Shown here: piece after piece, positions 4,980 to 57,800 of the stretch | Layout: each line of letters opens with the position of its first letter | Position numbering within the stretch: the stretch's first letter is position 1 | IMG/VR virus record: IMGVR_UViG_3300031957_002938 | Span: 25,659-89,658 of that record | Origin: a virus | Direction: 5' to 3' (one strand) | Length of the DNA stretch: 64,000 nucleotides | The notes under the pieces: generated by a model | What the model saw: the letters and a program-made list of their open reading frames with translations, nothing else | What the model was told of the DNA's origin: nothing | Databases searched by the model: none | Made by a program: the position numbers and the translations under genes

Positions 4980-6845
4980 TTAAGAAATAAACATCGGAGT
5001 GAAAGTCGTTTGGGTATCAGAGATATCATCAGACTCCATATCATAAAAAATATTCATCATCCAATTACCTAGCACTAAAGCTGAATAAGAGTCTTTTCTG
5101 GCTTTATCAGCCCCACTTTGTTTTCTCAAGTTACGTGGTAAATCAAAACTTTGTGTGCCTTGGGCAGAAGTCGTAATTTGCACCAAAGCACACTGAACTT
5201 TTATTAAGTCCATCATATCTTTTTGATGCTCTACAAAATCAATCATTCTAGCTCCTTTACCCCCTTTATCATTATTATCACCTTTAATGAACTTTAAATC
5301 ATCTATCGGGACTCTAGATTTCCTTTGATTGTTATAATCGTCATTCATTGCCGCTCCTGCGAAAAATATTCTTTTATGATCGAATGCTGATTGTAAAGAT
5401 TCGTTAGCTAGCCTGATCCATGCCGAAGTCGGCTTCCGAAGAAACACAAATTTCTTTTCTGACTTATTATATTGATTTTTAAGCCTTCTTAAGTTTTTAT
5501 CATAGTCTTTAGATTTATCTAGGTCGGCTTCTATGACACCAAGATTTAAATTTTTCTTTTTAAAGATTTCACTCTCATTGCAGGAGTTAATAAATTGAAC
5601 TCCTCCATTGTAGTCACCTACTACAGCAGCTACATTAAAGTGGGTCAATACGTAAGCCATGTATTTAATATGTGTTTTTAAACTCGATCCAGAAAGCGCA
5701 TAGCTATGGACAGCAGTTCCTTTTCTAGTGTCACGATTCAATTTTATTAAAAGCATCGCGAAATCGTCTGAACTTTCGCTTTCAGACCAAGAGGGGTCAA
5801 AAGCTAGAATATATTCATCTTTGGGATTACCCACAACCTCCACACATTGCCCTTCTCCGTCTGGTATCGTGCAAGCAGCCATCTTACTAACCTTAAAGTA
5901 TCCAGAGCTGTCATCTGTGAATATAGCACCAAACTCCCTGTCAAACTGGGAATCACTCATGGTGGATTTAGATTGATTGATTAGACTCTGATCATACAAC
6001 TGTTCAGGAGCGCAATCATAACTAAAATGCATTATTGTTCTGTGTGCTCCGTCTTGCTTTTTTTTATTTAAGATAAGAGCTTCATATTGCTGATAGATTT
6101 TATATAAATATTCAAATTTATAAGAAGCCGAGGATAAACCAATAATTTTGTTATTAGGCCACCTTTTTCTTTCTTCTTGTTTCATTTTACCCTGCTCAAT
6201 CATCTGGGTTTCTAAATCATAAACCTCTTGACGTTCTGTAGGGTTTTCCACAACAGATAGGAATGGTATGATAACCTCATTGTAAATTTTTTCAGGCATC
6301 AACAATAACTCATCAATAATCATTCTTTGGAATCGGAAACCCCTTAACTTTTCTCCATCTCCCAAAGGAAGCGCTCTGATACTACTTCTGCCGATCTCCA
6401 TAACCCACTCATCGTTCATCTTAGATGTTCTAGTTATGCATTGAGAAAAGAAAGTAGCCTTGGGGCTTTTTGCTATATCTTCGATCTTTTTGAAAATCAT
6501 TTTAGATTGCCTAAAAGACTTAGACAAAATACCTATCTGCACCCCCTGATTGAGAATAGCGTCTAATAGCGCGAAAACGCCCGTAGAGAAGCTTTTGGAC
6601 ATTCCCCGACTCCATATCCCCAAAAAGTAGTCAGACTCCATCATGGCCTTAATAGCCATATGCTGGAATGGGAATAATTTAACCCCTGTAAACAATTCAC
6701 AAGCAAAAGAAGGATTTTCCCTCAAGAATTTATAAAGCAAAACTTTCGCTTCAGTTTCCTCTATAAAACCCTCTTTTTCGAGAATATCTTTGTTTATATC
6801 CTTGTACTGTCGGTGTAGTTTCTGTTTTCCTGTTTCCCAAGCCAT
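4980..6845 (-). CDS. terL: Terminase large subunit
   Basis: LFPFQ Q-motif, Walker A-like SRGMSKS, LRGFRF, Walker B IIDE, RNase H-like AFDPS...DD and RKD motifs. Confidence 0.9.
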   Translation of the reverse strand: MAWETGKQKLHRQYKDINKDILEKEGFIEETEAKVLLYKFLRENPSFACELFTGVKLFPFQHMAIKAMMESDYFLGIWSRGMSKSFSTGVFALLDAILNQGVQIGILSKSFRQSKMIFKKIEDIAKSPKATFFSQCITRTSKMNDEWVMEIGRSSIRALPLGDGEKLRGFRFQRMIIDELLLMPEKIYNEVIIPFLSVVENPTERQEVYDLETQMIEQGKMKQEERKRWPNNKIIGLSSASYKFEYLYKIYQQYEALILNKKKQDGAHRTIMHFSYDCAPEQLYDQSLINQSKSTMSDSQFDREFGAIFTDDSSGYFKVSKMAACTIPDGEGQCVEVVGNPKDEYILAFDPSWSESESSDDFAMLLIKLNRDTRKGTAVHSYALSGSSLKTHIKYMAYVLTHFNVAAVVGDYNGGVQFINSCNESEIFKKKNLNLGVIEADLDKSKDYDKNLRRLKNQYNKSEKKFVFLRKPTSAWIRLANESLQSAFDHKRIFFAGAAMNDDYNNQRKSRVPIDDLKFIKGDNNDKGGKGARMIDFVEHQKDMMDLIKVQCALVQITTSAQGTQSFDLPRNLRKQSGADKARKDSYSALVLGNWMMNIFYDMESDDISDTQTTFTPMFIS

Positions 6846-7761
6846 CTTTTTTTAATTGTTTGTCCCAAAAATACTGAAGGTCTACTGCCCAGAGCTTCGT
6901 GCCTAAAACAAGAATTTTAGGAATTAGTTCTTCGCTTTTTTCTCTAGACCCACTAAACACAAATTGACAGCAGTCTGTATACTCTGCCTGTATTTCACGC
7001 ATCCTATGATAAACATAATCTAATTTAAATTTTTTGTATACCTGTTTATTAACAGCCCACATTTGGTCGAAAGCTGTTTCTATCACTATAAACAAGTAAC
7101 AACCCGTAGATCTGCACCTATCTAATTCTTTTAAGAACCGATTGTATCCATTTGTGACAGTAGAACAAAAATCCTGGTAAGACTTCCTATCCACGAATGT
7201 ATAGTCATATAAATCGCCCCCCACTGCATAATCCCCGACATCAAGCTTCAACAACTTAGAATTGGTGAAATGCAGGGGCTTCTGCTCTCTTGTATCTATC
7301 AGTATGGGTGTATCTGAATAATCTTTGTTGAATTGCTTCGGCAGAGGTTCGGAAAGCATGGGTTTCATGTCTAACTGTTTACATGTCTCTTTGTAGCTGC
7401 CGAAGATCTGTTTACACAGATCTATGTCTGGCAGATTGCTAGTGAGTAGGTAAGTGGACGGGGGTCCAGACGAAACCGCTTTGGAAAGGAATTTTTTGTC
7501 TAAGGATGCGACAATGAAATCTTTAACTTCCTCCTTTGGTGCTTGGAGACACCATTTTTTCATATTTCTTTTATTTATGAAATCTGTAGCGAAATACTGT
7601 TTATAATTTTTAAAAGGTATTAACTCTCCAGTTAACTTGTCTTTTCTTCCGTAATTCTCGACATAGTAGTCTCCCAACAGTTTACCGTGCTTTCTCATGT
7701 GAGAATGCAGTCCTTTTAAGGAATCAAATGAATCCCCACATATTTTACATTTATATGACAT
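6751..7761 (-). CDS. ERCC4/XPF-family nuclease with N-terminal C2H2 zinc finger
   Basis: CKICG...HSHMRKH zinc finger; IDTREQ...LDVGDY...DRKS..D ERCC4 signature. Confidence 0.8.
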   Translation of the reverse strand: MSYKCKICGDSFDSLKGLHSHMRKHGKLLGDYYVENYGRKDKLTGELIPFKNYKQYFATDFINKRNMKKWCLQAPKEEVKDFIVASLDKKFLSKAVSSGPPSTYLLTSNLPDIDLCKQIFGSYKETCKQLDMKPMLSEPLPKQFNKDYSDTPILIDTREQKPLHFTNSKLLKLDVGDYAVGGDLYDYTFVDRKSYQDFCSTVTNGYNRFLKELDRCRSTGCYLFIVIETAFDQMWAVNKQVYKKFKLDYVYHRMREIQAEYTDCCQFVFSGSREKSEELIPKILVLGTKLWAVDLQYFWDKQLKKDGLGNRKTETTPTVQGYKQRYSRKRGFYRGN

Positions 7762-10652: not shown

Positions 10653-11498
10653 TTATAATTTAACCTGTTTAATTGTCGCGCTAGTCGTTAAAGTCTCTCC
10701 TCCTTGATTAGAGTAAGATTCTGTTAATAACCTAGAACCGACAGTGAAATTAATTAAATCTTGTACAAATGGAGTAGTAGTACCTATTCCATGAACATTC
10801 ACACTTAGACTACTTGATAGCGACTCTCCACTGAAATTTATTAAATTTTTTAAACCTGTAGATGATATGGTTATTTCTTCCTCTACTCCATCAAGAAGCA
10901 TAGATGAAGCGTTTATTGACCCAATCCCGTAAACTGGTGTTCGGGCGTAACTTCTTTGAAAGCTTATTTGAGATTTAACATCACTTAGAATGTTTGCGTT
11001 GTCATTTACAGAACATGTATGACCATATGCGATTAGATTACTATCTAATGGTATTTCTCCCCCATTATAAGGATTTGGATCTCCGCTCACAGGTTGACCA
11101 ACCGCAGGTTCCAAAGAAACAAAATTAGCCTTTAATGTAACAGGAGCGAATGGACTAACGTCTATAGAAACATCTTTAGCGTAACATTTATGATAAACAC
11201 CACTCCCCACTTGGATTGATACAAAATTATCTTGATTCGCATCTTTTAAAAAGTCTAAACCAGATACCATACCTGATTGGAAAACGCAGTTAACTGATAT
11301 ATCAGCAGTAAGCGCTCCATTAAAACCAAACTGGTCATTAGAGGCTATTGTTTTTCCTTGTTTACGGTTGGGGCTATGATTTGTATTGTAATTTACACTG
11401 GCTTGAGTGGCAGGAACATAACCATTTACTTCATTCGGAACGGCTGTAGATCCGACACTCCCAATATAAACAGGAAACTCACTATATGGTAAACTCAT
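10653..11498 (-). CDS. Virion structural protein (tail-tube/baseplate-like)
   Basis: 281 aa, beta-rich with Ser/Thr/Val, RTPVYGIG motif, preceded by the GTGTAA motif. Confidence 0.45.
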   Translation of the reverse strand: MSLPYSEFPVYIGSVGSTAVPNEVNGYVPATQASVNYNTNHSPNRKQGKTIASNDQFGFNGALTADISVNCVFQSGMVSGLDFLKDANQDNFVSIQVGSGVYHKCYAKDVSIDVSPFAPVTLKANFVSLEPAVGQPVSGDPNPYNGGEIPLDSNLIAYGHTCSVNDNANILSDVKSQISFQRSYARTPVYGIGSINASSMLLDGVEEEITISSTGLKNLINFSGESLSSSLSVNVHGIGTTTPFVQDLINFTVGSRLLTESYSNQGGETLTTSATIKQVKL

Positions 11499-11517
11499 TT
11501 GTTTAATTTACACCATT

Positions 11518-11679
11518 TTACTGATTACCAACTACCATAAGGCCAAAATTTGCCGTAGCATATGATATCCAGATCACACCCCAACCATATTCCTTCTTCA
11601 TGAAATACGCAACAGCCACAACCCCATACATCAATCCCGCCAACAAAGGCACATACTTTGTTATATCGTCAAGAGTCAC
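11518..11679 (-). CDS. Small two-TM membrane protein
   Basis: MTLDDITKYVPLLAGLMYGVVAVAYFMKKEYGWGVIWISYATANFGLMVVGNQ, GTG start 5 nt after a TATAAT. Confidence 0.6.
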   Translation of the reverse strand: MTLDDITKYVPLLAGLMYGVVAVAYFMKKEYGWGVIWISYATANFGLMVVGNQ

Positions 11680-11911
11680 TCTTAATTATAGGGTCTGATT
11701 ATTTTTTTTAAACAATAAATAGAACTCATGCCCCCGTTTACCACGCCCAGACAAATGGGTGGGGGTTTCACCGTTGATAAATTGATAATGGACTCCCCCG
11801 CTCATTTTGCCACGCAAACGCTTAAAAATATTTTCAGAAATGGGGTGGGGTCTTGTGGGGTGTCAAGTCTTTTTTTAAATAAAAAAAAATAAAAAAAATA
11901 CAATAAACTAG

Positions 11912-11940
11912 TTGCGTTTAGTTTTAATCTGTGCTATACT
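11912..11940 (+). promoter_or_regulatory. First of about 15 sigma70-type early promoters with leaderless geometry
   Basis: TTGCGT-17-TATACT with an upstream A-tract; ATG follows 6 nt after the -10 box. Confidence 0.8.
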
Positions 11941-11946
11941 TACTAC

Positions 11947-12177
11947 ATGAAAAACAAAGAATTAATAAATCGTTTAGGTAATGGAGTTGAGTTCACCGCA
12001 CAAGGTGAGTGGTTTGTAGTCGCAGACACCGACTTTGAAAATGGTGTCGTGTGGGGCGTTGATCAAGACGGCGGCGAGCGCGAGGTCTCTATAGATTCTA
12101 TAGATGACATAAGCGAAAGTTTAGCCGACATGGTAAGCCGTGATTGGTCGCCTATGCTCAACAAATTGAGCATATAA
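11947..12177 (+). CDS. Early hypothetical protein
   Basis: 76 aa, own promoter. Confidence 0.75.
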   Translation: MKNKELINRLGNGVEFTAQGEWFVVADTDFENGVVWGVDQDGGEREVSIDSIDDISESLADMVSRDWSPMLNKLSI

Positions 12178-12235
12178 AAAAAAGATCAAAAAAGATCAAA
12201 AAAGATCTTGATTAACTTTTAACCCTGTGCTATAT
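12176..12235 (+). repeat. AAAAAAGATC tandem units fused to a promoter (also at about 12387-12432 and 12898-12925)
   Basis: (aaaaaagatc)x2-3 immediately followed by TTGAyT. Confidence 0.8.
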
Positions 12236-12241
12236 TCAGAT

Positions 12242-12388
12242 ATGGAAAATAAAACAGATAAATACATCATCTACGGTCAGTATGACCGAGATCATGAGTT
12301 TGACGGCACACTCGAAGAGTGCCGCGAGTGGATTCGCGTAGTCGATCCTAAGTGCAAGTGGTACTTCATAGCTCACGAGAGTGAGTAA
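12242..12388 (+). CDS. Early small protein (48 aa)
   Basis: MENKTDKYIIYGQYDRD..., own promoter TTGATT-17-TATATT. Confidence 0.7.
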   Translation: MENKTDKYIIYGQYDRDHEFDGTLEECREWIRVVDPKCKWYFIAHESE

Positions 12389-12441
12389 AAAAGATCAAAA
12401 AAGATCTTGACTAACTTTTAACCCTGTGCTATAGTATAAAC

Positions 12442-12645
12442 ATGACAGCAAAACAAGAATTACAATCAATCGAAGGCGAGGAAATCATTTTCAACATCTT
12501 TGACAATCAAGTCGAGCAAGGCATCCTTTCCTTTGATGCAAATGAAAATGCGATAGTGACCTTTGACGATGGCGAGACAATGCAAATAAAAGTCGAGCAG
12601 TTCGTTGACACATACGAAAATTGGAGCAAAGAAAACTTCAGCTAA
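12442..12645 (+). CDS. Early hypothetical protein
   Basis: 67 aa, acidic, own promoter. Confidence 0.75.
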   Translation: MTAKQELQSIEGEEIIFNIFDNQVEQGILSFDANENAIVTFDDGETMQIKVEQFVDTYENWSKENFS

Positions 12646-12698
12646 AAAAATATAATAAAATAGTTGCAATCAATTCTAATCTAGATTATACTTAAGCC

Positions 12699-12899
12699 AT
12701 GACAAAGACCAATCAAATCAGAATCACACGTTACTCTCACGCAAATCAGTATGACAATTCTCATTGTGGAATTGTTATAAACAAGGACAGATCAAAAGCA
12801 TATGTCACGGTTCACGTTGCAGAAATGGCTTTTAAGTGCGTAGATGTCTCAAGAGAGGACGCGCTAAAGATCCTCAAGACAATGAAATCGGAGGCATAA
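12699..12899 (+). CDS. Early hypothetical protein
   Basis: 66 aa, promoter TTGCAA-17-TATACT. Confidence 0.75.
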   Translation: MTKTNQIRITRYSHANQYDNSHCGIVINKDRSKAYVTVHVAEMAFKCVDVSREDALKILKTMKSEA

Positions 12900-12951
12900 A
12901 AAGATCAAAAAAGATCTTGATTAAAATCTAAAATTCAACTATACTACCCAC

Positions 12952-13125
12952 ATGACAGCAACCGAAGAAGCACTAGCAGCAATGGCCAAAGCAGAAGAAG
13001 CGTGGAACGAAATGGTTAACAGAACCGTCGATGTCTCGGGCCAGTTCGTAAAAGAATGCCAAGAGTTCCAGAAAGAGCAGCGGGAATGGCTGCGCGAAAA
13101 AAAAGATTCTAAAAACGCAAAATAA
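12952..13125 (+). CDS. Early small helical protein (57 aa)
   Basis: MTATEEALAAMAKAEEAW..., own promoter. Confidence 0.7.
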   Translation: MTATEEALAAMAKAEEAWNEMVNRTVDVSGQFVKECQEFQKEQREWLREKKDSKNAK

Positions 13126-13162
13126 TCCTTGCACTAATCCAAAATTCAACTATACTACTCAC

Positions 13163-13423
13163 ATGACAGCAAGCAAAGAATACTACCGCAGCGTAACTTG
13201 GGACGATGGCCGCACAGTCAAATTCAACGATGACTTCGAAGTCGAAGGCTTCACCAAGGTCACCGATATATGGCCTTCTGAAAGTTCTATAGCTAGGAAC
13301 CTTGAGCAACGCAAAGCTTTAGGCGGCGGCAAGTCTTTCGGATACCGCTACAAGTCTATGCAAAGACAAGACTGGTATGTAGACTTCGACGCAAAAGCTT
13401 TCTGGGCTTCTGATAACGTCTAA
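13163..13423 (+). CDS. Early hypothetical protein
   Basis: 86 aa, own promoter. Confidence 0.75.
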   Translation: MTASKEYYRSVTWDDGRTVKFNDDFEVEGFTKVTDIWPSESSIARNLEQRKALGGGKSFGYRYKSMQRQDWYVDFDAKAFWASDNV

Positions 13424-13466
13424 AAAAAAACTTTACTAACTTCTAAAACTACACTATACTACCCAC

Positions 13467-13715
13467 ATGAAAAAATTATTCTCTACTATCAATCACTTCA
13501 TCGACCGCTTTCTCTTTAGCCTGATGATATGCGTTAGCTTTAACCTTGCGCTCATATGCATAGCCGTCTTAATCGGTAGCGGTCCCGCACTTTTCAAAAG
13601 CGTTCTTCACGGTTGGGATGGCCTCGACTTTCTCGCTGTCATGTTTATACCGAGCACTTTCGGCGCGGTTGTGTTATTGTTAGGGGATGCAGTCTTGAAA
13701 ATAGTTCACAAATAA
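13467..13715 (+). CDS. Early membrane protein (2 TM)
   Basis: Two hydrophobic segments, own promoter. Confidence 0.7.
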   Translation: MKKLFSTINHFIDRFLFSLMICVSFNLALICIAVLIGSGPALFKSVLHGWDGLDFLAVMFIPSTFGAVVLLLGDAVLKIVHK

Positions 13716-13745
13716 TCTTGACAGGGTAACCTGTCGCTGTCATGG

Positions 13746-13780
13746 AGCCTCGTCACCCAAGGGTGGCGGGGCTTTTACTT
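13746..13780 (+). terminator. Rho-independent terminator
   Basis: agcctcgtcaccc-aa-gggtggcggggct followed by T-run. Confidence 0.8.
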
Positions 13781-13842
13781 TCTAAAAAAAAGTTAAAAAA
13801 AAACTTGACAAAGCTGCTTGTTGATAGTATGTAAAAAGCCTC

Positions 13843-13919
13843 GTAACTCACTGATAGTCAACGACTTACAAGGGCGCGGCCCCCGCCGCCCCGTAAGTGA
13901 CTGATACTCAACGACTTAC
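13843..13919 (+). repeat. 77-bp double-dyad element, copy 1
   Basis: 27-bp imperfect palindrome GTAAcTCnyTGAnnnTCAnnGAcTTAC, 23-bp GC-rich spacer, second 27-bp palindrome. Confidence 0.9.
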
Positions 13920-14103
13920 GAGCCTTTATACGCACAGTCGATCTGGGGGGCTGTCAAGTAAAAAAACACACTATTTACTATTTATCTATTTAACGTGTGA
14001 CCTGCGACCTGCAACGTGTCAAGTGAAATTTAAATAATAAAAAATAATAAAAAAGAATAAAAATGGTTGCATTAAACAAAAAATAGGTTATACTTACCCC
14101 ATC

Positions 14104-14274
14104 ATGACAGAGACAAAATCAGATCTTCAACAACTCCTCCAAGAACAGACTGCGGTCGCACTTATGAGAGACGACATCTCGTTTCTTATCGGTTGGACTA
14201 AAGCCGACAATCCAGAAATCGCTCAAAGACTTGAGGACATCTTGGCTAATCACACAAAAAACAGAAATAAGTAA
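14104..14274 (+). CDS. Early small protein (56 aa)
   Basis: MTETKSDLQQLLQEQ..., promoter TTGCAT-17-TATACT. Confidence 0.65.
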   Translation: MTETKSDLQQLLQEQTAVALMRDDISFLIGWTKADNPEIAQRLEDILANHTKNRNK

Positions 14275-14275
14275 A

Positions 14276-14467
14276 ATGATAAATCGAATCGATCAAATCC
14301 TAGCAAACCTAAACTGTGCCGCTGTAGATGGCGGCTTCTGCCTCTTTGTAAAGGATGGGGAAATTGTAGCCAAGGATCTTCTCTCCGAGGAGCCTCTTGA
14401 GTTTAATATCAGATTCGTTGGAACTGACATCTCTGACATCGAAGCAAAACCACTCACCAAAAAGTAA
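14276..14467 (+). CDS. Hypothetical protein
   Basis: MINRIDQ..., starts 1 nt after the upstream stop codon. Confidence 0.6.
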   Translation: MINRIDQILANLNCAAVDGGFCLFVKDGEIVAKDLLSEEPLEFNIRFVGTDISDIEAKPLTKK

Positions 14468-14468
14468 C

Positions 14469-14843
14469 ATGGGACTAGACCAATACGCAAAAAAAGTAAA
14501 GAGGAGATACAATCACGAAACCCTCACGGAGACAATCGTCAAAACTGAAATAGGTTACTGGCGCAAGCATCACGCACTAGAGTCTTATATGGCTGAACTA
14601 TACAGCACTAAGACATATGATACAGGAGAGTTTAACCTTAAAACTCTTAATCTTGACTCTGATGACTTGGATACCTTGGAAATGGTAATTAAAAAAAGTT
14701 TGTTACCTAAAACAGTATGGGGAGGGGTCAAGGATTGCACTGAAGATAATGACGAATATAAAGAAACTGATCTTGAGTTTATAACTAAAGCAAGAAAATG
14801 TCTCGCCAAAGGTTTCGAGGTGCAATATACATCTTGGTGGTAA
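14469..14843 (+). CDS. Conserved phage hypothetical protein (MGLDQY...YWRKH...SWW family)
   Basis: Recognisable N-terminal MGLDQY and YWRK motifs; start at 14469. Confidence 0.75.
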   Translation: MGLDQYAKKVKRRYNHETLTETIVKTEIGYWRKHHALESYMAELYSTKTYDTGEFNLKTLNLDSDDLDTLEMVIKKSLLPKTVWGGVKDCTEDNDEYKETDLEFITKARKCLAKGFEVQYTSWW

Positions 14844-14904
14844 AGACTTAAAAAAAAAGTAATAAAACGCTTGCGCCCTCATAGGATCGGGGTATACTAA
14901 TAGC

Positions 14905-15111
14905 ATGACAGTTCAAAATCCAATAGGCGACTTACAACCAATGAATGAAACCGATCTCCGCGAAATGCTCGACGACGGGCCTCGCGCTGGCAACTGGAAT
15001 CCCACACCCGACGAGGTGCAGGAGGCGCTAGCGCAGATCCACGCCGACATGGGTGACCGCGACCCTAACTGGTCATCGGAGGTTGAGGATCAAGACGAGA
15101 TCCCGATGTAA
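14905..15111 (+). CDS. Early acidic small protein
   Basis: 68 aa, promoter TTGCGC-17-TATACT. Confidence 0.7.
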   Translation: MTVQNPIGDLQPMNETDLREMLDDGPRAGNWNPTPDEVQEALAQIHADMGDRDPNWSSEVEDQDEIPM

Positions 15112-15114
15112 GCT

Positions 15115-15191
15115 GTAACTCCCTAAGTCTCAACGACTTAGGGGGGCGCGGCCCCCGCCCACTCGTAACTCGTTGATACTCAACAGGTTAT
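15115..15191 (+). repeat. 77-bp double-dyad element, copy 2
   Basis: Same 27-23-27 layout as copy 1. Confidence 0.9.
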
Positions 15192-15351
15192 GAAGCAAAA
15201 ATAAAAATGCATTTAAATGCAAAAAAAAGGTTGCAATCTCTATTTGTTGTGATATACTACGTCCATGAAGTTGAAATTCCCCAAACTCTGGAGCAAAAAA
15301 AACAACAAATTACCACTTGACCTAACCCCACTTATCGGTTATACTACTCTC

Positions 15352-15639
15352 ATGAATAAAACAACACACATCCTCAACACAGGTCCACACAACGACCTTC
15401 CTTCCAACCCTATCGAACTCGCCTCTGCTTTGACTGGCAAAACTTTGGTATACAATGCTATCAAGTCCACCGTTAAAAGTAATAACACTAGAGTGTTTAA
15501 AGTTCAAAAGGTTGATGACGTATATACTTCAAACTCTACTGGTGAGAAGTGCGTGACTGTTTGGGCTAACGACATCGATAGAGATGGAGAACTTGTCCCT
15601 CGCACTTTGCACGTTCACGGTATCAAATCAATTTCCTAA
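15352..15639 (+). CDS. Early hypothetical protein (second in-frame start with its own promoter at 15265)
   Basis: TTGACC-17-TATACT-6-ATG at 15352. Confidence 0.7.
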   Translation: MNKTTHILNTGPHNDLPSNPIELASALTGKTLVYNAIKSTVKSNNTRVFKVQKVDDVYTSNSTGEKCVTVWANDIDRDGELVPRTLHVHGIKSIS

Positions 15640-15640
15640 T

Positions 15641-15709
15641 GGGGGAAGTGTGTGGTGGGGGGTGGTCTGCTGAAAGTAAAAGTATGTAGGCGGCTGCCCC
15701 CCATTTCCC
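15641..15709 (+). ncRNA. Candidate structured RNA (long G-U-rich stem)
   Basis: tggggggtggtc pairs with ggctgcccccca and gtctgc with gtaggc only when G-U pairs are allowed on the + strand; no U-tract follows. Confidence 0.35.
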
Positions 15710-15752
15710 TAAAAAAACTTTACAAACAATAAACAATAAACTATACTAACCC

Positions 15753-15971
15753 ATGTCAAAATCACCTGAATCAATTCGTATCGAAGTCCAAAATAAAGAT
15801 CAAGCTATCTTGCTTCAACACGCCTTACGTATCGTTCATCAAGACCTCGCCTCATATATGGGAGAGGTGCAAGATGACAAGTTCGAAAATTTTGTGGATA
15901 ATGTGAAATGGACGCGTAAGCATCTAACTTCATTAGACAAAAAGTTTTCTTTGACTGCTAGCGAGTCTTAG
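15753..15971 (+). CDS. Early hypothetical protein
   Basis: 72 aa, own promoter. Confidence 0.7.
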   Translation: MSKSPESIRIEVQNKDQAILLQHALRIVHQDLASYMGEVQDDKFENFVDNVKWTRKHLTSLDKKFSLTASES

Positions 15972-15974
15972 AAA

Positions 15975-16077
15975 ATCGGTGGTAACAGTGACCAACTCTT
16001 AATTGACTGGCACTCGTCAACAAGCCGACCCTCTCCTGTTTTTTCAGCGCAGTCTAATTAGTGGGAGGGGGAACCAA
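15975..16077 (+). ncRNA. Candidate pseudoknotted RNA
   Basis: taattgactg/cagtctaatta and ccctctc/gggaggg are interleaved A-B-A'-B'. Confidence 0.35.
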
Positions 16078-16097
16078 TTTTCTTTTGGACATATCTA

Positions 16098-16131
16098 CCT
16101 CGTCCCCTTCTGTCATGGGGGGCGGGGTTTT
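16098..16131 (+). terminator. Rho-independent terminator
   Basis: cctcgtcccc...ggggcgggg followed by tttt. Confidence 0.7.
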
Positions 16132-16136
16132 CCTTT

Positions 16137-16213
16137 GTAACTCACTGATACTTAGGGGGTTACGAGGCAGCGGCCCCCCGCGCCGTGTAACTCGTTGATA
16201 CTCAATGACTTAC
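16137..16213 (+). repeat. 77-bp double-dyad element, copy 3
   Basis: Same 27-23-27 layout. Confidence 0.9.
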
Positions 16214-16353
16214 GAGGCAAAAATAAGCACACTTTTCTAGGTCTGTCAAGCATTTATTCTAACTATTTTGTCAAGAACTATTTTACCCAAAAAAGATTCA
16301 AATTAAATGCAGAAAGTTATTGCAATCCGTCTCATTCTCGCTATACTTCTTGC

Positions 16354-17208
16354 ATGAGCTTAATCCTAGCTAAAAACAAAGTAAGTCGCGAGCAACTCGC
16401 GGCTGTCGATTCAGACACAGGTCTGTTTCTCGAAGGATTCGGTGAAAACGGAGTAGCTAAAAGGACTCCTGATTCCACCGATACCCACACACCAATCGCT
16501 CACTCGCTTCTCGTTGATGAAGCGCACAAGGCATTGGATCGGTTCGGCTTCGCAGTCGAAGAAGAAGAACACGCTCTCGCGTGTGCAGGTGACCAATACT
16601 TTGGCGGCTTTGCCATCAAAGGTCAAGATATCGAAGCTGCTGACCGCCGTTTGGTTGTCGGTCTTCGCAACTCGCATAACAAGCGTTTTTCCGCTTCGGT
16701 TTGCATCGGCAACCAAATGATGGTTTGTGAAAACCTTTGTTTCTCTTCTGATGTAAAGCTTGCTCGCAAGCATACAAAATACATCGTCGGGGATCTTTCG
16801 CGCCTCCTTTCGGATGCAATCTCTAGTGTCGTCGAGCATTGGTCCGACATGGGCGACCGCATCAAAGCCTACAAGGCTACAGAGGTCGCTTCTAATCGCG
16901 TTGCCGACTTGGTTGTAGACTTGGTTGATGCCAAGGCCGTTGCTAAAGGTCGCATCTACGATGTTGTCGAAGAGTTTCGCAACCCTCGTCACGACGAGTT
17001 CAAAGGCGGCTCTCTCTGGACTCTCTACAATGGGATCACAGAGAATCTCAAGGGCAACGATATGACTTTGTTGTCAAATCGGACTCGCAAGATTCAAGGA
17101 ATCTTTGACAGGGTAGCGGGTCACACCTCGCTCGCGCAAATCGAAGCGGCTAAAAAAGCCGCCGAGGAAGCCGCGAAAGAGGCCGAGATGGTCGCGCTTC
17201 CCGCGTAG
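16354..17208 (+). CDS. DUF932/DUF945-like protein of phages and plasmids
   Basis: THTPIAH, LRNSHNK...VCENL, RKHT and SLWTLYNGITE motifs. True start MSLIL follows TTGCAA-17-TATACT. Confidence 0.75.
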   Translation: MSLILAKNKVSREQLAAVDSDTGLFLEGFGENGVAKRTPDSTDTHTPIAHSLLVDEAHKALDRFGFAVEEEEHALACAGDQYFGGFAIKGQDIEAADRRLVVGLRNSHNKRFSASVCIGNQMMVCENLCFSSDVKLARKHTKYIVGDLSRLLSDAISSVVEHWSDMGDRIKAYKATEVASNRVADLVVDLVDAKAVAKGRIYDVVEEFRNPRHDEFKGGSLWTLYNGITENLKGNDMTLLSNRTRKIQGIFDRVAGHTSLAQIEAAKKAAEEAAKEAEMVALPA

Positions 17209-17222
17209 GTAAACCCATCACA

Positions 17223-17252
17223 GCCCGTCCCCGAGAGGGGGCGGGTTTTTTT
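17223..17252 (+). terminator. Rho-independent terminator
   Basis: gcccgtcccc-gaga-gggggcgggt followed by T-run. Confidence 0.85.
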
Positions 17253-17301
17253 GTGCTTTCTTAAAACTTTTTTCTTGACACGCATTAAAGTAATAACCTT
17301 C

Positions 17302-17378
17302 GTAACTCGTTGGTTATCAATGAGTTAGGCGGCGCGGGGGGCCGCGCCCTCGTAACCCCTTGACTATCAACGTGTTAC
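17302..17378 (-). repeat. 77-bp double-dyad element, copy 4 (inverted)
   Basis: Spacer reverse complement gagggcgcggccccccgcgccgc matches copies 1 and 3. Confidence 0.9.
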
Positions 17379-17437
17379 AACTGAAAATAAATGCAATTAA
17401 ATTTGACAACGGTTTGCCCCCGTGCTATATTTAAGCC

Positions 17438-17674
17438 ATGACACCACCGAGACTAACCACAGAATCTTTTTCTATTTGCTATTATGATGGCAATACTGGA
17501 GAAGTAATAGAGCTTAAAACTTATCTTAATAACACTGGCCGAGTAATAGATACTTTGGAAATGGCTGTTGACAGCAAGCCCGAGTATGATGGACTTGTGC
17601 TATGGGATATAAACACTGTGAAAGAAGCAGATGACGACAGGAAACACATTGCAAAAAAAGTTTACCACAAGTAA
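17438..17674 (+). CDS. Early hypothetical protein
   Basis: 78 aa, TTGACA-17-TATATT promoter. Confidence 0.7.
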   Translation: MTPPRLTTESFSICYYDGNTGEVIELKTYLNNTGRVIDTLEMAVDSKPEYDGLVLWDINTVKEADDDRKHIAKKVYHK

Positions 17675-17739
17675 ATTAATTTAATTAATTTTAATTAAAA
17701 AAAATTGACAAACCGAGCGAGTCTTGTATACTAATGCTC

Positions 17740-18426
17740 ATGTCAAACCTACTTAATTCAGGAAACTATAAAACGAGTAAGGGCGAAAAGTATGGTTGGA
17801 AAACCTATGGCTTGCACCTTGCACCCTTTAACTTATCAGGAAAAAATGTTTGCTCTTCTGCTTCTGTTGGTTGTTCTACTGCTTGCCTCAATACTGCTGG
17901 TCGTGGATCAATGCATTCAGTTCAAGATGCCCGAGTTAAAAAAACACAGAGGTTTTTCGAGGATCGGGTTGAATTCTTATCGCAGCTATTCAAGGAAATC
18001 AAAAGCTCGGTCAAGAGCGCGGCGAAGAAACAAATAAACTCTTGTTTCAGGCTTAATCTCACAAGCGACTTGCCTTGGGAGAATATGGTGGTCAAACACT
18101 TTCCAGATTCTCAATTCTACGACTACACAAAACACTTAAAAAGATTCGTTGCATACTTAGAGGGAAAGCTCCCTGACAATTACCATCTTACTTACTCCAG
18201 GGATGAAACAACGCCCGATACATTAGTTCAAAGCTTGTGTGCAAGTGGTGGAAACGTCGCTGTCGTTTTCCGAGGAAGTCTCCCAAAGACATGGCTTGGA
18301 ATCGAAGTGATCGATGGCGACGATTCAGACTTGCGCTTTAAAGATGGCAACGGTAAAATTGTTGGGTTGCTAGAGAAAGGTCTTGCTAAGAAAGATGAAA
18401 CTGGATTCGTAGTAGAGCCATGTTAA
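17740..18426 (+). CDS. Gp88-like protein (degenerate radical-SAM-like, CxxxxxxCxxxC)
   Basis: NVCSSASVGCSTACLNTAGRG, FRLNLTSD, FYDYTK, NYHLTYS, DGDDSDLRF motifs. Confidence 0.75.
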   Translation: MSNLLNSGNYKTSKGEKYGWKTYGLHLAPFNLSGKNVCSSASVGCSTACLNTAGRGSMHSVQDARVKKTQRFFEDRVEFLSQLFKEIKSSVKSAAKKQINSCFRLNLTSDLPWENMVVKHFPDSQFYDYTKHLKRFVAYLEGKLPDNYHLTYSRDETTPDTLVQSLCASGGNVAVVFRGSLPKTWLGIEVIDGDDSDLRFKDGNGKIVGLLEKGLAKKDETGFVVEPC

Positions 18427-18503
18427 TAGATCCTCACTGGTTTATAATAATGATGACTTTACTTTTAACCCTTTGCTGCTATAGAAAACGAGAGTAATAA
18501 GAT

Positions 18504-18686
18504 ATGACAATAGAAGTAACACAAAAAGAAGTTTATGGAAACACCCTCACCTATGTGGCAGATGAATCCATAAGGAACTCCATAAAGAAACTAACGGGAA
18601 GAAAAACCTTGACAGACTATGACATCGAAGCTCTTAAAGAGCTAGGCTTTGTCTTAGTGCTTAAGCAAATGACCGTTGCTATCTAA
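18504..18686 (+). CDS. Small phage protein (VYG...LTGRKTLT family)
   Basis: 60 aa. Confidence 0.7.
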   Translation: MTIEVTQKEVYGNTLTYVADESIRNSIKKLTGRKTLTDYDIEALKELGFVLVLKQMTVAI

Positions 18687-18693
18687 AACCCCC

Positions 18694-18770
18694 GTAACTC
18701 CTTGAGTATCAAGGGGTTAGAGGGCGCGGGGGGGCGCTCCCGCCTAACTCGTTGAGTATCAGTGACTTAC
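18694..18770 (-). repeat. 77-bp double-dyad element, copy 5 (inverted)
   Basis: Same 27-23-27 layout; centre triplets GTA are the reverse complement of TAC. Confidence 0.88.
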
Positions 18771-18795
18771 AAGGCGAATCTTTATGAATGCACAC

Positions 18796-18822
18796 AAAAA
18801 AACCCGCATTGCTGCGGGTTTG
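18796..18822. terminator. Terminator at the convergence of + and - gene blocks
   Basis: aaaaaaacccgca-ttgc-tgcgggttt. Confidence 0.8.
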
Positions 18823-18866
18823 GTTATTTATTTGATCTTATTTGATCTGGTATTATAGTTATTTAG

Positions 18867-19349
18867 TCAAGATCTCACGACCTGCAACTTACCATATGTT
18901 TCTTTCTTTCTACCTCTCATCCACATACAATCCCAACGCTGTCTTCGAGGTTTGCGGTGGTAGTATCGATAGACCTCACCTGTTTCTTTATTAATGAGTT
19001 TATATTTACCCTTGATTGTTTTTACATTGCCCCCGTTATCTTCTGATTTATAACACCTCTCTGGTCTGGCCCCGACCTTCCGACACATACGTTTCCATAC
19101 AAAGTCATGCCCATGTCCTGGGCCTGTAAGTGCGTGGGCGATTTCATGGAGAACAACATCTTTTGTTTCTTCGAGAGTATTAATACTTGCGAGTTTCTTC
19201 GTAATACCAATCTCCTTACTTCCGTATCGGCACTGCCCGTATCTTCGAACAGCTCTAGTATCCCATACAAACTTCCAATCAGATATGCCCCACTTGTCCA
19301 TCTCTTCTAATGCGAACAGTTTTACTTGGTGTAATTTAATTAAGTCCAT
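18867..19349 (-). CDS. SprT-like zinc metalloprotease
   Basis: RYGQC, VLHEIAHAL, HGHDFVWK...C. Confidence 0.85.
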   Translation of the reverse strand: MDLIKLHQVKLFALEEMDKWGISDWKFVWDTRAVRRYGQCRYGSKEIGITKKLASINTLEETKDVVLHEIAHALTGPGHGHDFVWKRMCRKVGARPERCYKSEDNGGNVKTIKGKYKLINKETGEVYRYYHRKPRRQRWDCMWMRGRKKETYGKLQVVRS

Positions 19350-19398
19350 TTTCTTAAGGTCTGTATAAACAATAATATTAATAGTAATAAGACTTCAA

Positions 19399-19683
19399 TC
19401 ACTGGTTGTGGATATGTTCGATGTGCTTCTCAACATACTGCTCGAAGTCTCCTATATTGTTTAGGTGCTTGCGCCTCTCATCATATGCCATAGAGAAAGC
19501 ATCAACATCCACAGCTTCCAGATCTTGGATATAATAATCTCTGCCGTGGAATTCACAAGAACTAATAGCTTCCCTTAATTCATTAATAGCAGATAGGATT
19601 CGAACATTTCCCTCCAATAACGATTCTTTTGAAGTGCCATTAAGGTGAACTGTCGGTAGTGGATACTCTTTTGTTTCAGTCAT
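19399..19683 (-). CDS. Hypothetical protein (LPTVHLNGT...HGRDYY family)
   Basis: Start MTETK lies 6 nt after TTGACT-17-TAGTAT. Confidence 0.7.
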   Translation of the reverse strand: MTETKEYPLPTVHLNGTSKESLLEGNVRILSAINELREAISSCEFHGRDYYIQDLEAVDVDAFSMAYDERRKHLNNIGDFEQYVEKHIEHIHNQ

Positions 19684-19912: not shown

Positions 19913-19986
19913 TAGGTGCGGTGGGATTCGAACCCACACTTTACGGATTTTAAGTCCGTTGCCTCTGCCAGTTGGGCTACGCACCC
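19913..19986 (-). tRNA. tRNA-Leu(TAA), short variable loop, CCA not encoded
   Basis: GGGTGCG/CGCACCT acceptor stem with A73, D-loop AACTGGCAG, anticodon arm ACGGA-CTTAAAA-TCCGT, T-arm GTGGG-TTCGAAT-CCCAC. Confidence 0.92.
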
Positions 19987-29984: not shown

Positions 29985-31244
29985 TTAATTATTGAATTCA
30001 AGCTTAATAGCTTTTGAAGTCCCAGCCAAACCAAGATAAACATCGTCGCCTTTTACTAAAGGTGCTGTTGAGTATCCCGTCCCGATGCTCATAATACCAG
30101 AGCCGTCTTCAACAGTCAAGTTGCCATCTGAAAATTCATATTCATAATCTTTCCACTGTATCTCATAAGTCTCTGGATTAATCCTAAAACATTTTGTATC
30201 AGCCCAAAACGTGCTGTAAACCCAACCGTCAGGGGCTAAATAACCTTGAAAGCTTTTGTTTTTATTAGCTACCGCCAAGAAATCTGGAGGCAAATCAATC
30301 TCTTCATAGCTATCGTCAGAACAATCAATGATAAGAATTTTTCTACCTGTTCTTGGGATGCAAAATACTTTATTAACTGATGCAACATATGTAGCTCCTA
30401 CATATTTGACATCAAACCCACTGGTCCCAGATTTAACAGGTTCTCCCTCAAGATATTTAAAAACGCCATTTTTATCTATTTTAGCGACGCTTTGATTCAA
30501 AGCAGGGGGCATATAAATCTCTCCCTTTGCATCTGCTGCTGCACCCCAAATATGGCCAAAAGCTGACCAAAATCCACCTTTGACTGGTTTATCTGGGGTG
30601 TATGATCCTACTTCTCCAGTATTTGTATCTAAAGTATAAATCTTTAGAGTCTTAGTGTATGAGGGCATATAAATAATACCATTTAACCCCTCTGCCCCAG
30701 ATCTAATTTGAGGACTCGTCCTGAATTTTTTTTCTATGGTTATAGAACCAGTCTTCCTACCAAGCTTACCAATAGAACTCGCATAAGCTGGCATAAAATA
30801 AGTGTATCCATCTGAAGCTTCAACAGTGCCGATAAAACCTTTATAACCTAATTCATTTCTTTTTATAGAATCAGTAGCTGTATCAGTCTCAATATGCATA
30901 TTCGACTTATAACCTAATGAATGAATTGTCCCGTTATCATCCATAGCCATAGTGCGTGTTTTGGTAAGATTACCTACTATTTCATTTTTTAAATATTTAA
31001 AATTCGGCCAAGGCAAATTCCTTAAATTAATACTGACGCTCGTCGAACCGATGCCAACACTCGTCGAACCAATGCCAACGCTCGTCGAACCGATACCAAC
31101 GCTCGTCGAACCGATACCAACGCTCGTCGAACCAATGCCAACGCTCGTCGAACCGATACCAACTCTTGGAGACACAACCTCGTCAACTGCTTTGTTGTAA
31201 CTTTTAAATAAGTTAATTATTTTTTTTATAAATCCAAAAAACAT
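29985..31244 (-). CDS. Beta-propeller-like protein with N-terminal (VGIGSTS)x6 repeat
   Basis: Repeating DG.IY.MP / G.VY blade-like motifs. Confidence 0.65.
   Translation of the reverse strand: MFFGFIKKIINLFKSYNKAVDEVVSPRVGIGSTSVGIGSTSVGIGSTSVGIGSTSVGIGSTSVGIGSTSVSINLRNLPWPNFKYLKNEIVGNLTKTRTMAMDDNGTIHSLGYKSNMHIETDTATDSIKRNELGYKGFIGTVEASDGYTYFMPAYASSIGKLGRKTGSITIEKKFRTSPQIRSGAEGLNGIIYMPSYTKTLKIYTLDTNTGEVGSYTPDKPVKGGFWSAFGHIWGAAADAKGEIYMPPALNQSVAKIDKNGVFKYLEGEPVKSGTSGFDVKYVGATYVASVNKVFCIPRTGRKILIIDCSDDSYEEIDLPPDFLAVANKNKSFQGYLAPDGWVYSTFWADTKCFRINPETYEIQWKDYEYEFSDGNLTVEDGSGIMSIGTGYSTAPLVKGDDVYLGLAGTSKAIKLEFNN
31038..31163 (-). repeat. Six tandem 21-bp in-frame repeats
   Basis: (gctcgtcgaaccratrccaac)x6. 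Confidence 0.95.
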
Positions 31245-54813: not shown

Positions 54814-57800
54814 ATGCCGACAGTAACAGGAGACAATTTCTATATAGATAAGCACAACCTCCAATTCAGGACTGGAGTAGAGTCATTAGCTTCTATAGAA
54901 TATAGCAAGTTATCAGAGAGTATTAGTATAAATACTGCTGGAACAGGAGCTATCAATATCGGAGACGCTGGTGGAGATATCTTTATAGGAGATGGCTTAA
55001 ATCAAACTGACATTGTTTTTGAACAAAATGGGGCGATAAGAGGGTTGTCTAATAAAACTTTATCTCTAGGCCAACCTGACTCTTTTGTCCAAGTAAACGC
55101 ACAAGACTTTATTGTTAGTGGAGATGCTCAATTTAGTGGCCAATTAACAGTTGATGGAAACCCTGTAATGACAGGAGCTAACCCTTTTGATGAGGATACC
55201 CTACAAACTGTTACTGATAGAGGAGCTACCACTACAAATAGTATAGGTATAGGAACAAACAGTCCTAGAGGTAAGTTAGATATTGTTGGAAACACAGATA
55301 ATGATACTGATTTTTTGACAATACAAGATGATGATCCTTCTGCTGGTTCACATAGACCAAGTATAAGATTTAGATCAGATAGCGCTCAAATTGGACAGAT
55401 TGTAAGTTTAAATAATGGAATGAGGTTTTCTGTGGGGACTACAGAAGATTCATTACTGGAAATCAAGAGTGGTGGCAATGTTGGTATAGGAACAACTAGT
55501 CCAAGTAACAAATTAACAGTAACAACAAGCACTACTTCTGATGGGGTGTTTATAGAAACTTCTCAACCTGTTACATATGCAAAGCTATTCAATTCTAATT
55601 CAGAGTCTTTTCCTGTAGGAAATTTGAACTTGAGTTATGGATCAAACTCTACTGCGGTTATTGTTGCATTAAGCAATAGAATGACTTTGAAAGGGGGCTA
55701 CACTACAGGAGGTCAAATATCCTTTTTGTCAGCTTCTTCAGAAATAATGAGAATGACCTCTACAGGTCTAGGTATAGGAACAACTAGTCCAACTGTTGCT
55801 TTAGATGTTGTGGGAAGATTGAATGTTAGTGGCATCACTAATATAAATGGAACTTATTTAAATATAGGTGGTGGGTATGGCTCTACAGGCTCTTCATTAG
55901 ATAGTTCAGGTAATATACAAGCAAATGGATATTTACATGTTGACGGTAACGTTGGTATAGGAACAACGAGTCCAACATCGCCTTTAACTATAAAGTCAAA
56001 CAGTGTTAGCTCAAACGACTCTGCTTTAACAATACAGGGGAACAGCAATACTAACGCTATTGTCAAAATAGCAGAAAAGGCAACTGATGGAGCAAGATTC
56101 CACATGTATGACGGGGGTGTAGAAAAAATAGCTTTTTACACTGATGGAACAGCTAACCACATTTCTGCTGGCAACGTTGGCATAGGAACAAATAGTCCAA
56201 CTGCACAATTACAAAGTGTAGCACCAGACGGTAATAAATCTTCTTTAAGGCTAGGTAGATCCGATACATCAATTTTCTGGGATTTCAATCATGCTGGAGG
56301 TGACCTAAGAATTTGGAACTCGGCAGCTTCTGGTTCAGATATTTTGCTTGGAGTAGATGCAGGAGGTACGGCAAAAAATAATAAATTAGGTATAGGAACA
56401 GCGAGTCCGACTGCGAAGTTACATGTTCAAGGAACTTCTTTCTTTTTTGATCAAGCTATTTTTGACGACAAGGTTGGTATAGGAACAGCTAGTCCAAGTA
56501 AGAAATTAGAAGTTAATTCTGGTTCAGGAAACACAGACGGTATTAGAATTACTGGTAGTGGAGCAAATACATCACTTATAATTAATAATACTGGTAGTAA
56601 TGGAGTTGCTTGGGACATAACTTCAACAGGTGGAGGACATGGATATGGAGATGGTGCATTACATTTCGGAGTAGCTTTTGGTCTGCCAAAAATGAAAATA
56701 ACCAGCACTGGCAACGTTGGTATAGGAACAACGGATCCAGCCACTATTTTAGACATAGATGATGGAACCCTTTCCGATATAAGAATAAGAGGTAATGCTA
56801 CAACTGATGTTAGATTTGCTGGAATTGCCTTTTATAATACAGCTGGAAGTGATACTGTAGCTGCGGTTAATGTAGACAGGGATGGAGCTAACGATGCGGG
56901 AGCTTTAACTTTTGATACTCAACCTGCTGGCGGAGGTAATACAGAACGATTGCGTATTTCCTCTACTGGAGCTATTAAATTCAACAACTACGGAGCTGGA
57001 ACATTCACGGGGACAGTAACGCAAAAACTAGGCGTTGATTCCTCTGGTAACGTAATTGAAATGCCAATCGGAGCGGGGCCAGTTGATGGATCAGGAACCG
57101 CTAATTACCTAGCGAGGTGGATAGATTCAGATACTTTAGGGATTGGAGCTGCATATGATAATGGTACGAATGTCGGTATAGGAACAAATAGTCCAAGTGC
57201 CAAGCTGGATATTGGTTCCGTTTTTACATTTAACACTTCAACTGATCTTTTAACTATAACCAATAATCAAAATACTGGTGGAATTAATTTATCTGGTGGA
57301 AATAGTAGAATATATTTTGGTGGTTATAGGGCTATTGAAGGCGATCAAAGTGGTGGCACATTATACATAGGTGAGGGGTATGGGACGATATCCTTGATGG
57401 ATGATGTCTCTATAAATGGTCAGTTGACACTTAATGGCTACGTCCAAGCAGGAAATGTAAAATTTGAGAGGGGTGGAATCAATAATTCTACATACACAAT
57501 GCTTTGCACTGTTGCAGGTGATCGCCTTGCGTCTATTGTGAATATGACAATCACGGGAACGAGTAACGCTGTTGTGTTATCTAGTTCCTTTGAGATAAAT
57601 GTAAATCATTATCAAGATATACATGTTAGGTCTTTGAGTGGAGATTACACCGAAGCCACGATCAGAATCACAAGTAATAATAATGAAGATTATTCTATTG
57701 AATTAAAACACAATGGTAGCACCACTACTAATGTGGAAGTTTGTGTTTTCCCACAGGCTGGCGAAACCATAACACCCACAACAACAGACCCTAACTATAC

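Follow-up and report, generated by a model that had tools for sequence, protein, structure and literature searches.

Integron attC sites conserve structure and not sequence and need IntI, and the cassettes of integrons lack promoters. Sites for IHF, a protein of the DNABII family, share the consensus WATCAANNNNTTR, found for example in lambda attP H', and real sites of this kind are asymmetric, an A/T tract taking the place of the consensus in one half. The PeSLs of T4-type phages combine a sigma-70 promoter, an AT-rich tract and a terminator stem-loop, and have been shown to work as both promoter and terminator (Arbiol et al. 2010, PMC2839356; Comeau et al. 2014, PMC4122927). In the chromosomal BIME-1 repeats two REPs enclose a linker with an IHF site, and the roles proposed for REPs include topological insulation and the binding of IHF and gyrase (PMC3333891). 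Here we analyse an intergenic element that resembles each of these systems in some respects and differs from them in others. It is found in the early region of a phage in a window of 64,000 nucleotides (nt), which comprises bases 25659-89658 of the 89,658-bp IMG/VR virus record IMGVR_UViG_3300031957_002938 (CheckV completeness 81%). Each copy of the element has 77 bp and consists of a 27-bp imperfect palindrome (dyad), a 23-bp spacer and a second 27-bp palindrome. In our tentative reading, a DNA-bending dimer, which is probably host IHF, binds the element as a paired site, and the element forms a fixed boundary module that takes part in cassette exchange as a by-product; we would give this reading a probability of roughly 45%.

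The initial annotation had listed five copies in the window, and all of them were found again at their positions, as given below, where plus polarity denotes a spacer that is first G-rich and then C-rich and dyad centres reading T-A-[A/C].

13843-13919, plus polarity: copy 1, with dyads at 13843-13869 and 13893-13919 and the GC spacer at 13870-13892
15115-15191, plus polarity: copy 2, starting 4 nt past the stop codon of the open reading frame (ORF) 14905-15111
16137-16213, plus polarity: copy 3, abutting the T-run of a predicted terminator (16097-16128) and lying upstream of a DUF932-family gene
17302-17378, minus polarity: copy 4, 94 nt past the stop codon of the DUF932 gene and 25 nt before the -35 box (17403) of the next promoter
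18694-18770, minus polarity: copy 5, starting 8 nt past the stop codon of ORF 18504-18686

All five copies keep the 27-23-27 build. Orientation with a position weight matrix reads +++--, which agrees with the opposite directions already noticed for copies 1-3 and copies 4-5, and the spacers are indeed almost pure GC, with G or C at 20-22 of 23 positions in a genome of about 38% GC. A repeat finder returned one family (D13) that comprises exactly these five copies. The dyad pattern, searched with up to three mismatches, has 10 sites (5 x 2) in the whole 89,658-bp record (reversed control 0 and 1), and a degenerate pattern made of the invariant letters and the geometry matches only the five copies in 64 kb, while none is expected from 100 shuffles. 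The scan of the rest of the record, which had been proposed as a check, thus returns these elements and nothing else. The elements sit in a plus-strand block of small ORFans at 11.7-18.7 kb with their own sigma-70-type promoters and terminators. Three copies had been described as lying right after a terminator, which is correct for copy 3 (about 9 nt) but not for copies 1 and 4, for which the distances are 68 and 55 nt. Copy 1 begins 9 nt downstream of a -10 box predicted by eye, the left dyad of copy 2 is the most degenerate of the ten in the window, and copy 5 is followed, 30 nt further on, by a bidirectional terminator (18800-18821), which lies at the early block's convergent end.

The element is not restricted to this phage. 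The geometry pattern occurs in at least 117 stretches of public viral contigs, and 280 unique copies were gathered among the matches listed; these loci are not independent samples, and their gene calls are crude longest-ORF calls. Because the pattern presupposes the geometry, the 117 loci and the window (118 sequences, 1.16 Mb) were rescanned for single dyads, which gave 822 hits compared with 4-15 in shuffled sequences. Of 380 dyad neighbours not more than 200 bp apart, 352 are at exactly 50 bp, and the other distances are 44 (9 cases), 51 (6), 53 (4) and 47 bp (3) and five single values. The spacing is therefore conserved in the relatives, and the statement that the lengths never change holds for the window but has to be weakened to nearly fixed for the family. 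At loci L106 (~1087-1160) and L107 (~1122 and ~8518) a third dyad is attached to an element by a short AT-rich spacer instead of the GC spacer, with a dyad distance of 44 bp, and at L109 and L114 a stretch containing TTGACA stands in place of the left dyad. An array can hold as many as 11 copies, and the median distance from one to the next is 1147 bp. Within genomes the elements are confined to a compact region in five further records, four of which are 100% complete (reversed controls all 0). All 11 copies of a 166.5-kb genome lie within 17.9-32.2 kb and all 11 copies of a 178.5-kb genome within 17.6-32.4 kb, and one of the five records has two clusters. Outside viruses the element is almost absent: among 185,579 species genomes of bacteria and archaea, matches to the pattern are limited to 9 stretches of 5 metagenome-assembled genomes, whose labels are inconsistent and whose contigs are mostly short, so that no host was inferred from them.

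After orientation of the 280 unique copies with an iterated position weight matrix, the consensus dyad reads GTAA-S-TC-r-Y-TGA / T-A-m / TCA-A-s-GA-S-TTAC, with C and G flanking it, and in the consensus spacer G prevails in the left part and C in the right part. The regular expression used for selection forces 10 of the 27 dyad positions, and independent information therefore comes only from the remaining ones. The element could act as RNA or single-stranded DNA, that is as a terminator, a processing site, a small RNA or an extruded hairpin promoter. Each part can be folded on paper, some window copies form near-perfect stems if G-U pairs are included, and a minus-strand promoter is predicted at 16249-16220 (TTGACA, 18 nt, TATTTT; 10/12 matches) that is directed into copy 3. 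Pairing was counted in a gapless alignment of 140 copies, with at most two copies per locus plus the five of the window. A model with three hairpins has 74.6% paired cells compared with 72.4% after shuffling, and none of 500 shuffles is as high, although an excess of pairing within the dyads would also be expected from the symmetric co-variation of the half-sites of a dimer. Covariation measures that are robust to relatedness gave no excess for the three-hairpin model (482 and 423 of 500 shuffles as high). The single long hairpin does hardly better than its shuffles (68.5% versus 68.0%), 59.7% of the spacer cells are paired, and at several stem positions 40-67% of the cells are unpaired. At the variable positions Watson-Crick pairs have frequencies of 0.57 (positions 5/23), 0.31 (8/20) and 0.42 (9/19), compared with 0.53, 0.27 and 0.50 expected from the column frequencies, and the Watson-Crick frequency equals the product of the column frequencies for pairing within and between dyads alike. 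Chimeras that combine left and right arms of different copies fold no worse than real ones (spacer -11.1 versus -11.3 to -11.5 kcal/mol).

The polarity of the element is distinct, with a median margin of 12 bits, but it does not follow transcription. Elements are co-oriented with the flanking genes in 76 cases and anti-oriented in 80, and both orientations are found inside one co-directional gene block of the window. Tandem, convergent and divergent gaps make up 0.62, 0.19 and 0.19 of the element-bearing gaps versus 0.59, 0.22 and 0.19 of all gaps of at least 90 bp. No T-run follows the GC part, and within 11400-19400 no Rfam family matches at the elements at E <= 1, the two weak hits to leader peptides lying at 18794-18896. 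Because pairing is hardly selected and polarity ignores the direction of transcription, the element is best understood as a double-stranded protein site and not as RNA. We have rejected the folded-strand explanation on the Rfam result, the pair counts, the folding of the chimeras and the polarity, and regard it as very improbable. The same evidence, together with the conservation of sequence and geometry, favours the protein-bound architectural DNA site that had been put forward in the initial annotation.

The dyads resemble IHF sites in sequence and in their size of about 27-30 bp. In the oriented set all 292 perfect matches to WATCAANNNNTTR have their W at position 14 or 64, which are the exact dyad centres. 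Of the 560 dyads, 277 carry a perfect consensus on one or both strands, whereas about 0.35% per strand would be expected, counting the five letters that the selection does not force. In the window five perfect matches fall into the 385 bp of the elements and 14 into the other 63.6 kb (13 versus 0.22 per kb), and none of the ten dyads departs from the consensus by more than one mismatch. The four exact IHF strings quoted in the first description of the copies are all present, and the perfect matches all have a dyad as their centre; copy 4 has one in both dyads, on the plus strand. The right-hand dyad favours one strand for the perfect consensus (127 versus 44), which accounts for much of the polarity of the element. 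Each dyad can be described as an IHF-type site in mirror form: on both strands TCAA begins 2 bp from the centre and TTA (TTR in the consensus) lies 10-12 bp out, which is where a dyad-centred DNABII dimer would make contact according to the geometry of the IHF-H' structure. It differs from known IHF sites in that both halves carry the consensus in mirror image and in that two sites are locked 50 bp apart. An HU/IHF protein (PF00216) is not encoded in the nine element-bearing records, four of them complete. Because the phages encode none, host IHF or another DNABII protein is probably the binder of the dyads, as judged from the sequence of the sites.

These features could be combined as follows. 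The element would be a double-stranded module with two sites for a symmetric DNA-bending dimer, and the stiff, hard-to-melt GC spacer would hold both sites exactly 50 bp apart. Host IHF or another DNABII protein would bind to the mirrored dyads, and the two sharp bends, at fixed distance and helical phase, would give the intergenic DNA a single defined shape. The folded module may then mark and insulate the boundaries of the early cassettes, which have promoters of their own and often consist of one gene. Which protein binds, that it bends the DNA and that the module insulates are the parts of this explanation that we infer, whereas the conservation of sequence and geometry, the missing selection for pairing, the independence from transcription, the restriction to phages and to one region of their genomes and the cassette indels are observed.

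Several points weigh against this explanation. The 10 positions forced by the regular expression inflate the apparent conservation of the dyads, and the pairing of the three-hairpin model does exceed that of all 500 shuffles, by 2.2 points. T6, C7, G21 and A22 are conserved in 88-93% of the copies and fall into the unspecified NNNN of the IHF consensus. In addition, the second half of the dyad mirrors the consensus, whereas real IHF sites have an A/T tract there. Given these extra conserved positions and the symmetry of the site, the binder may be a different and more specific protein. Several early genes start 6 nt after the -10 box (16342-16356, 17426-17440 and others; for example TATATT-taagcc-ATG at 17438), which implies leaderless mRNAs and could bear on the identity of the host, and leaderless early genes would also fit hosts without classical IHF. 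The role as boundary or insulator is pure inference, and the elements have neither a preference for tandem, convergent or divergent gaps nor a fixed distance to promoters.

Other known binding sites were considered for the dyads. The CtrA box, a direct repeat TTAA-N7-TTAA, does not fit them. A ParB/parS reading was dismissed since ParB was not found in the nine element-bearing records. The DnaA box, a reading prompted by the parts of a preprint that deal with the T5 injection stop (10.1101/866236), has two to three mismatches by eye and thus fits worse than the IHF consensus.

If the binder is more specific than IHF, it could be encoded by the phages themselves. The protein might be a clade-specific one, such as the DUF932 protein or another core protein, and the elements might be its operators, for example ones through which early transcription is shut off or coordinated. 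The specificity of the dyads beyond the IHF consensus would be explained in this way, as would the limitation of the element to one phage clade and its near-absence from bacteria. Spacers are also more alike within a locus than between loci (0.64 versus 0.50; variable dyad positions 0.62 versus 0.56), a pattern compatible with conversion between copies and also with a spacer reader that is specific to the lineage. The DUF932 gene lies between copies 3 and 4 of the window:

16354-17208, plus strand: DUF932-family gene (Pfam PF06067, E 1.2e-05)

Its likely start is the ATG at 16354, six bases past the -10 box, and its mRNA would thus probably be leaderless. DUF932 is the only conserved gene of the arrays, being present at 50 of the 118 loci and in all four complete genomes, where it lies inside or beside the array as a single-gene cassette with an element on each side. 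In the window the polarity switches at this gene. At 38 loci, many of them related, the flanking elements in the frame of the gene are (+,-) in 13, (-,-) in 13, (+,+) in 10 and (-,+) in 2 cases, so that upstream elements tend to be plus and downstream elements minus, which is only a trend. In 4 of 28 homologues (L030, L096, L084 and L085) the BLAST match contains an internal stop codon, and these are either broken copies or assembly errors.

A structural model of the DUF932 protein computed from 25 sequences has a pLDDT of 76.8. VIA-align matched it to the FP domain of Fbxo7 (Z 9.6) and to the C-terminal DNA-binding domains of TnsE (Z 8.3) and T4 MotA (Z 6.2), but the background of the tool is at Z 7-8 and these matches are accordingly rated as near background. 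Foldseek found nothing better than E 0.03 and a profile search of the sequences in the PDB gave no match. The predicted resemblance of the N-terminal domain to saddle-type DNA-binding domains is therefore a lead and no more. Among the 20 early or neighbouring small proteins scanned none has a DNA-binding Pfam domain, and the distances between elements and promoters vary, which also counts against this alternative. DUF932 proteins are also common on bacterial plasmids and integrative and conjugative elements, where the element is absent. A phage-encoded binder is thus an alternative to be taken seriously, but we consider it rather unlikely.

The differences between related arrays concern whole cassettes. 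If each array is written as a string of its cassette families, the window has 17|0|5|1|3|13 and locus L059 has 17|4|0|5|1|3|13. Copy 1 of the window is a hybrid, since its left flank and left dyad resemble one element of L059 and L075 and its right flank resembles the next one. A unit of one cassette plus one element must therefore have been gained or lost with the crossover inside the element. Of 433 collinear flank pairs, 346 have an element-sized gap, 58 have more than 300 bp extra, 28 have 96-300 bp and one has 48 bp, and an empty site was not found among them. The larger intervals, 47 of them distinct, are bounded by elements on both sides in 20 cases, on a single side in 25 and on neither side in two. 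Homology breakpoints were counted per kb for elements (+/-20 bp), other intergenic DNA and coding DNA, and amount to 5.94, 4.50 and 1.77 at 70-85% identity and to 2.84, 1.82 and 0.43 at an identity of at least 85%. Synteny breakpoints are thus denser at the elements, as had been anticipated, but they exceed other intergenic DNA in density by a factor of only 1.3-1.6. The elements are involved in cassette exchange, although they surpass gene boundaries in general by no more than this factor.

It could be possible that recombination is the primary function and that the elements are PeSL-like stretches of homology, or att-like sites of a recombinase of unknown type, that shuffle the early cassettes. 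Besides the hybrid copy and the insertions bounded by elements at both ends, this is suggested by contigs assembled in Logan from four runs of four studies, in which 12 of 24 listed loose ends are at elements although these cover only 4.8% of the stretch, and by successive elements that share one polarity, the polarity switching in 64 of 210 adjacent pairs. However, more of the larger insertions have an element at one end only than at both. Tyrosine (PF00589) and serine recombinases are absent from the record of the window and five relatives, four of them complete, so that the remark that no recombinase is visible in the window can be extended to the whole record and to these relatives for both families. 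A Y1 transposase (PF01797) is likewise absent from all nine element-bearing records. It is also hard to see why homology alone would need a rigid 50-bp geometry and a palindrome kept across terminases that are 36-53% identical. Apparent joints in metagenome contigs, five in all, turned out to be dyad-GC-dyad pieces of foreign elements that match piecewise and were not counted. Recombination as the primary function is therefore improbable. If instead the element is the bending module described above, the same 77 bp every ~1.1 kb would offer portable homology for the gain and loss of cassette-plus-element units. A bolder version, which we think of as a long shot, is that the array is a new phage platform for gene cassettes, in which DUF932 sits amid ORFan cassettes and double-bend modules, bound by host IHF or by a phage saddle-domain protein, insulate the cassettes and direct their exchange without the known recombinase families; it would be integron-like but made of different parts.

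The terminal inverted symmetry, the several copies, the occurrence in both orientations and the intergenic location are also what one would expect from a selfish miniature mobile element of MITE or REPIN type without function for the phage. Such an element should leave empty sites, of which the 433 collinear flank pairs contain none. At a site that is filled in L082 and L063 and short in the window, the insertion consists of about 190 bp of unrelated, variable DNA together with an element, and no target duplication is present. The missing transposase and the confinement to one region of each genome do not fit either. A MITE was therefore rejected on the empty sites and the absent target duplication, and we give a selfish origin almost no weight.

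The comparison with PeSLs, integrons and BIMEs can now be made more precise. Like the PeSLs, which are short repeated intergenic motifs in plastic regions rich in ORFan early genes of T4-type phages (PMC2839356, PMC4122927), the element lies between ORFan cassettes. As in the PeSLs, its centre is of the polyG...polyC type, and cassette-plus-motif units are gained or lost between relatives leaving a chimeric motif at the junction. Unlike a PeSL it has no promoter inside its 77 bp and no T-run. Instead it has two additional 27-bp palindromes with a rigid spacing of 50 bp, and it occurs in either orientation to the genes and in siphovirus-type phages unrelated to T4. In a strict scan, a promoter not more than 125 nt downstream was found for 17 of 154 elements between co-directional genes. 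Without an internal promoter and a terminator tail, and with its two palindromes at rigid spacing, the element is not a member of the PeSLs. The suggestion of PeSL-like cassette shuffling is thus supported as far as the location, the hybrid-element indels and the 20 of 47 insertions bounded by elements are concerned, while the small excess of breakpoints over other intergenic DNA speaks against it. The element shares with integron attC sites that imperfect palindromes border small gene cassettes in an array. In contrast to attC it conserves sequence with pairing unselected, and the cassettes have their own promoters and terminators. For these reasons, and since tyrosine (PF00589) and serine recombinases are missing from all six records, the integron-like site of the initial annotation was abandoned.

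With BIME-1, also called RIP, the element has in common that it is a composite intergenic repeat with a GC-rich palindromic part and an IHF-type site in fixed geometry, and architectural and topological roles have been proposed for both (PMC3333891). The elements might accordingly be topological devices like REPs or BIMEs, that is gyrase or topoisomerase sites aided by IHF that absorb the supercoils from strong early promoters. The sharing of features and listed roles with REPs and BIME-1 (PMC3333891) and a region dense with promoters are in line with this. However, the order is the inverse of that of BIME-1, namely IHF-like, GC, IHF-like, and the element is borne by phages and not by chromosomes. 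It has no GTAG tag, no selection for hairpins or complementarity and no Y1 transposase, and it is not biased against divergent gaps. A REP/RAYT system was rejected because of the missing Y1 in nine records, the near-absence from the 185,579 species genomes and the lack of selection for complementarity, and a topological device in general is quite improbable, a little more so than a recombination site.

The phage itself is a large one of siphovirus type with a terminase, tail protein L, a gpJ-like protein and a 2132-aa tape measure protein, and further encodes ribonucleotide reductase, PhoH and a RuvB-like ATPase. The terminases of the five further records are 36-53% identical to that of the window, and a gene for an ERCC4 nuclease adjoins the terminase gene in all five related genomes searched. 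The shared terminase and the neighbouring ERCC4 gene indicate that all of them belong to one deep clade. The ERCC4 protein (6751-7761, minus strand, beside the terminase gene at 4980-6845, minus strand) has an N-terminal C2H2 zinc finger and an XPF/Mus81-type nuclease domain, and in the control panel its family matches only in archaea. It was tried as a partner of the element because it is present in five of five relatives, but it is always beside the terminase and is thus a core gene of the clade with nothing specific to the elements. A cultured close relative was not found by megablast of 6.5 kb, which gave no match. In blastn one element gave three hits at chance level (E 0.8), and the best terminase match in the search for cultured relatives is 26% identical. 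Runs from seawater or marine metagenomes, coming from at least seven studies, contain the early region of the phage.

A published description of the element was not found in the literature searched, which does not cover supplements and subscription journals. New in this analysis are the breakpoint test with an intergenic control, the zero empty sites, the controls for the pair counts and the assignment to a single clade. The absence of five enzyme or binder families (6-9 records each), the near-absence from bacteria, the linkage to DUF932 and the first structural model of this protein are also new. In this clade of large uncultured aquatic phages, which is widespread, few non-coding features are conserved as strictly as the element. 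It marks exactly the region of the fast-changing host-takeover genes, and bioinformatic searches can readily use it to recognise the early region and members of the clade. If it is an IHF-type architectural module, a phage would build fixed DNA shapes with a host protein to organise its early genes, and the module could serve as a compact synthetic insulator or bending part. If the element directs cassette exchange, this would explain how the clade renews its repertoire of ORFans.

Several further features of the window were noticed. A word related to the minus-strand promoter predicted at 16249-16220, TCTGTCAAG, follows copies 1 and 3. A second repeat family lies over early promoters at 12189-12978, where three to five copies of AAAAAGATCAAAAAAGATCTTGA... 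(families D17 and D18) are followed by a TATA-type -10 box and an ATG. Just past the early block a single tRNA-Leu with the anticodon TAA is encoded at 19913-19986 (minus strand), from which no clue to the host was obtained. ORF 29985-31244 (minus strand, 419 aa), for which a Pfam match was not found, contains at 31009-31176 six to seven tandem 21-bp repeats that encode a repeated heptapeptide. Two giant ORFs, 43042-51957 (2971 aa) and 54814-64000 (more than 3062 aa, running off the end of the window), are filled with repeats of 20-26 copies per family, which have the DNA core GTTGGTATAGGAACAA...AGTCCA and the protein motif N-V-G-I-G-T...S-P, and both ORFs probably encode very long tail fibres.

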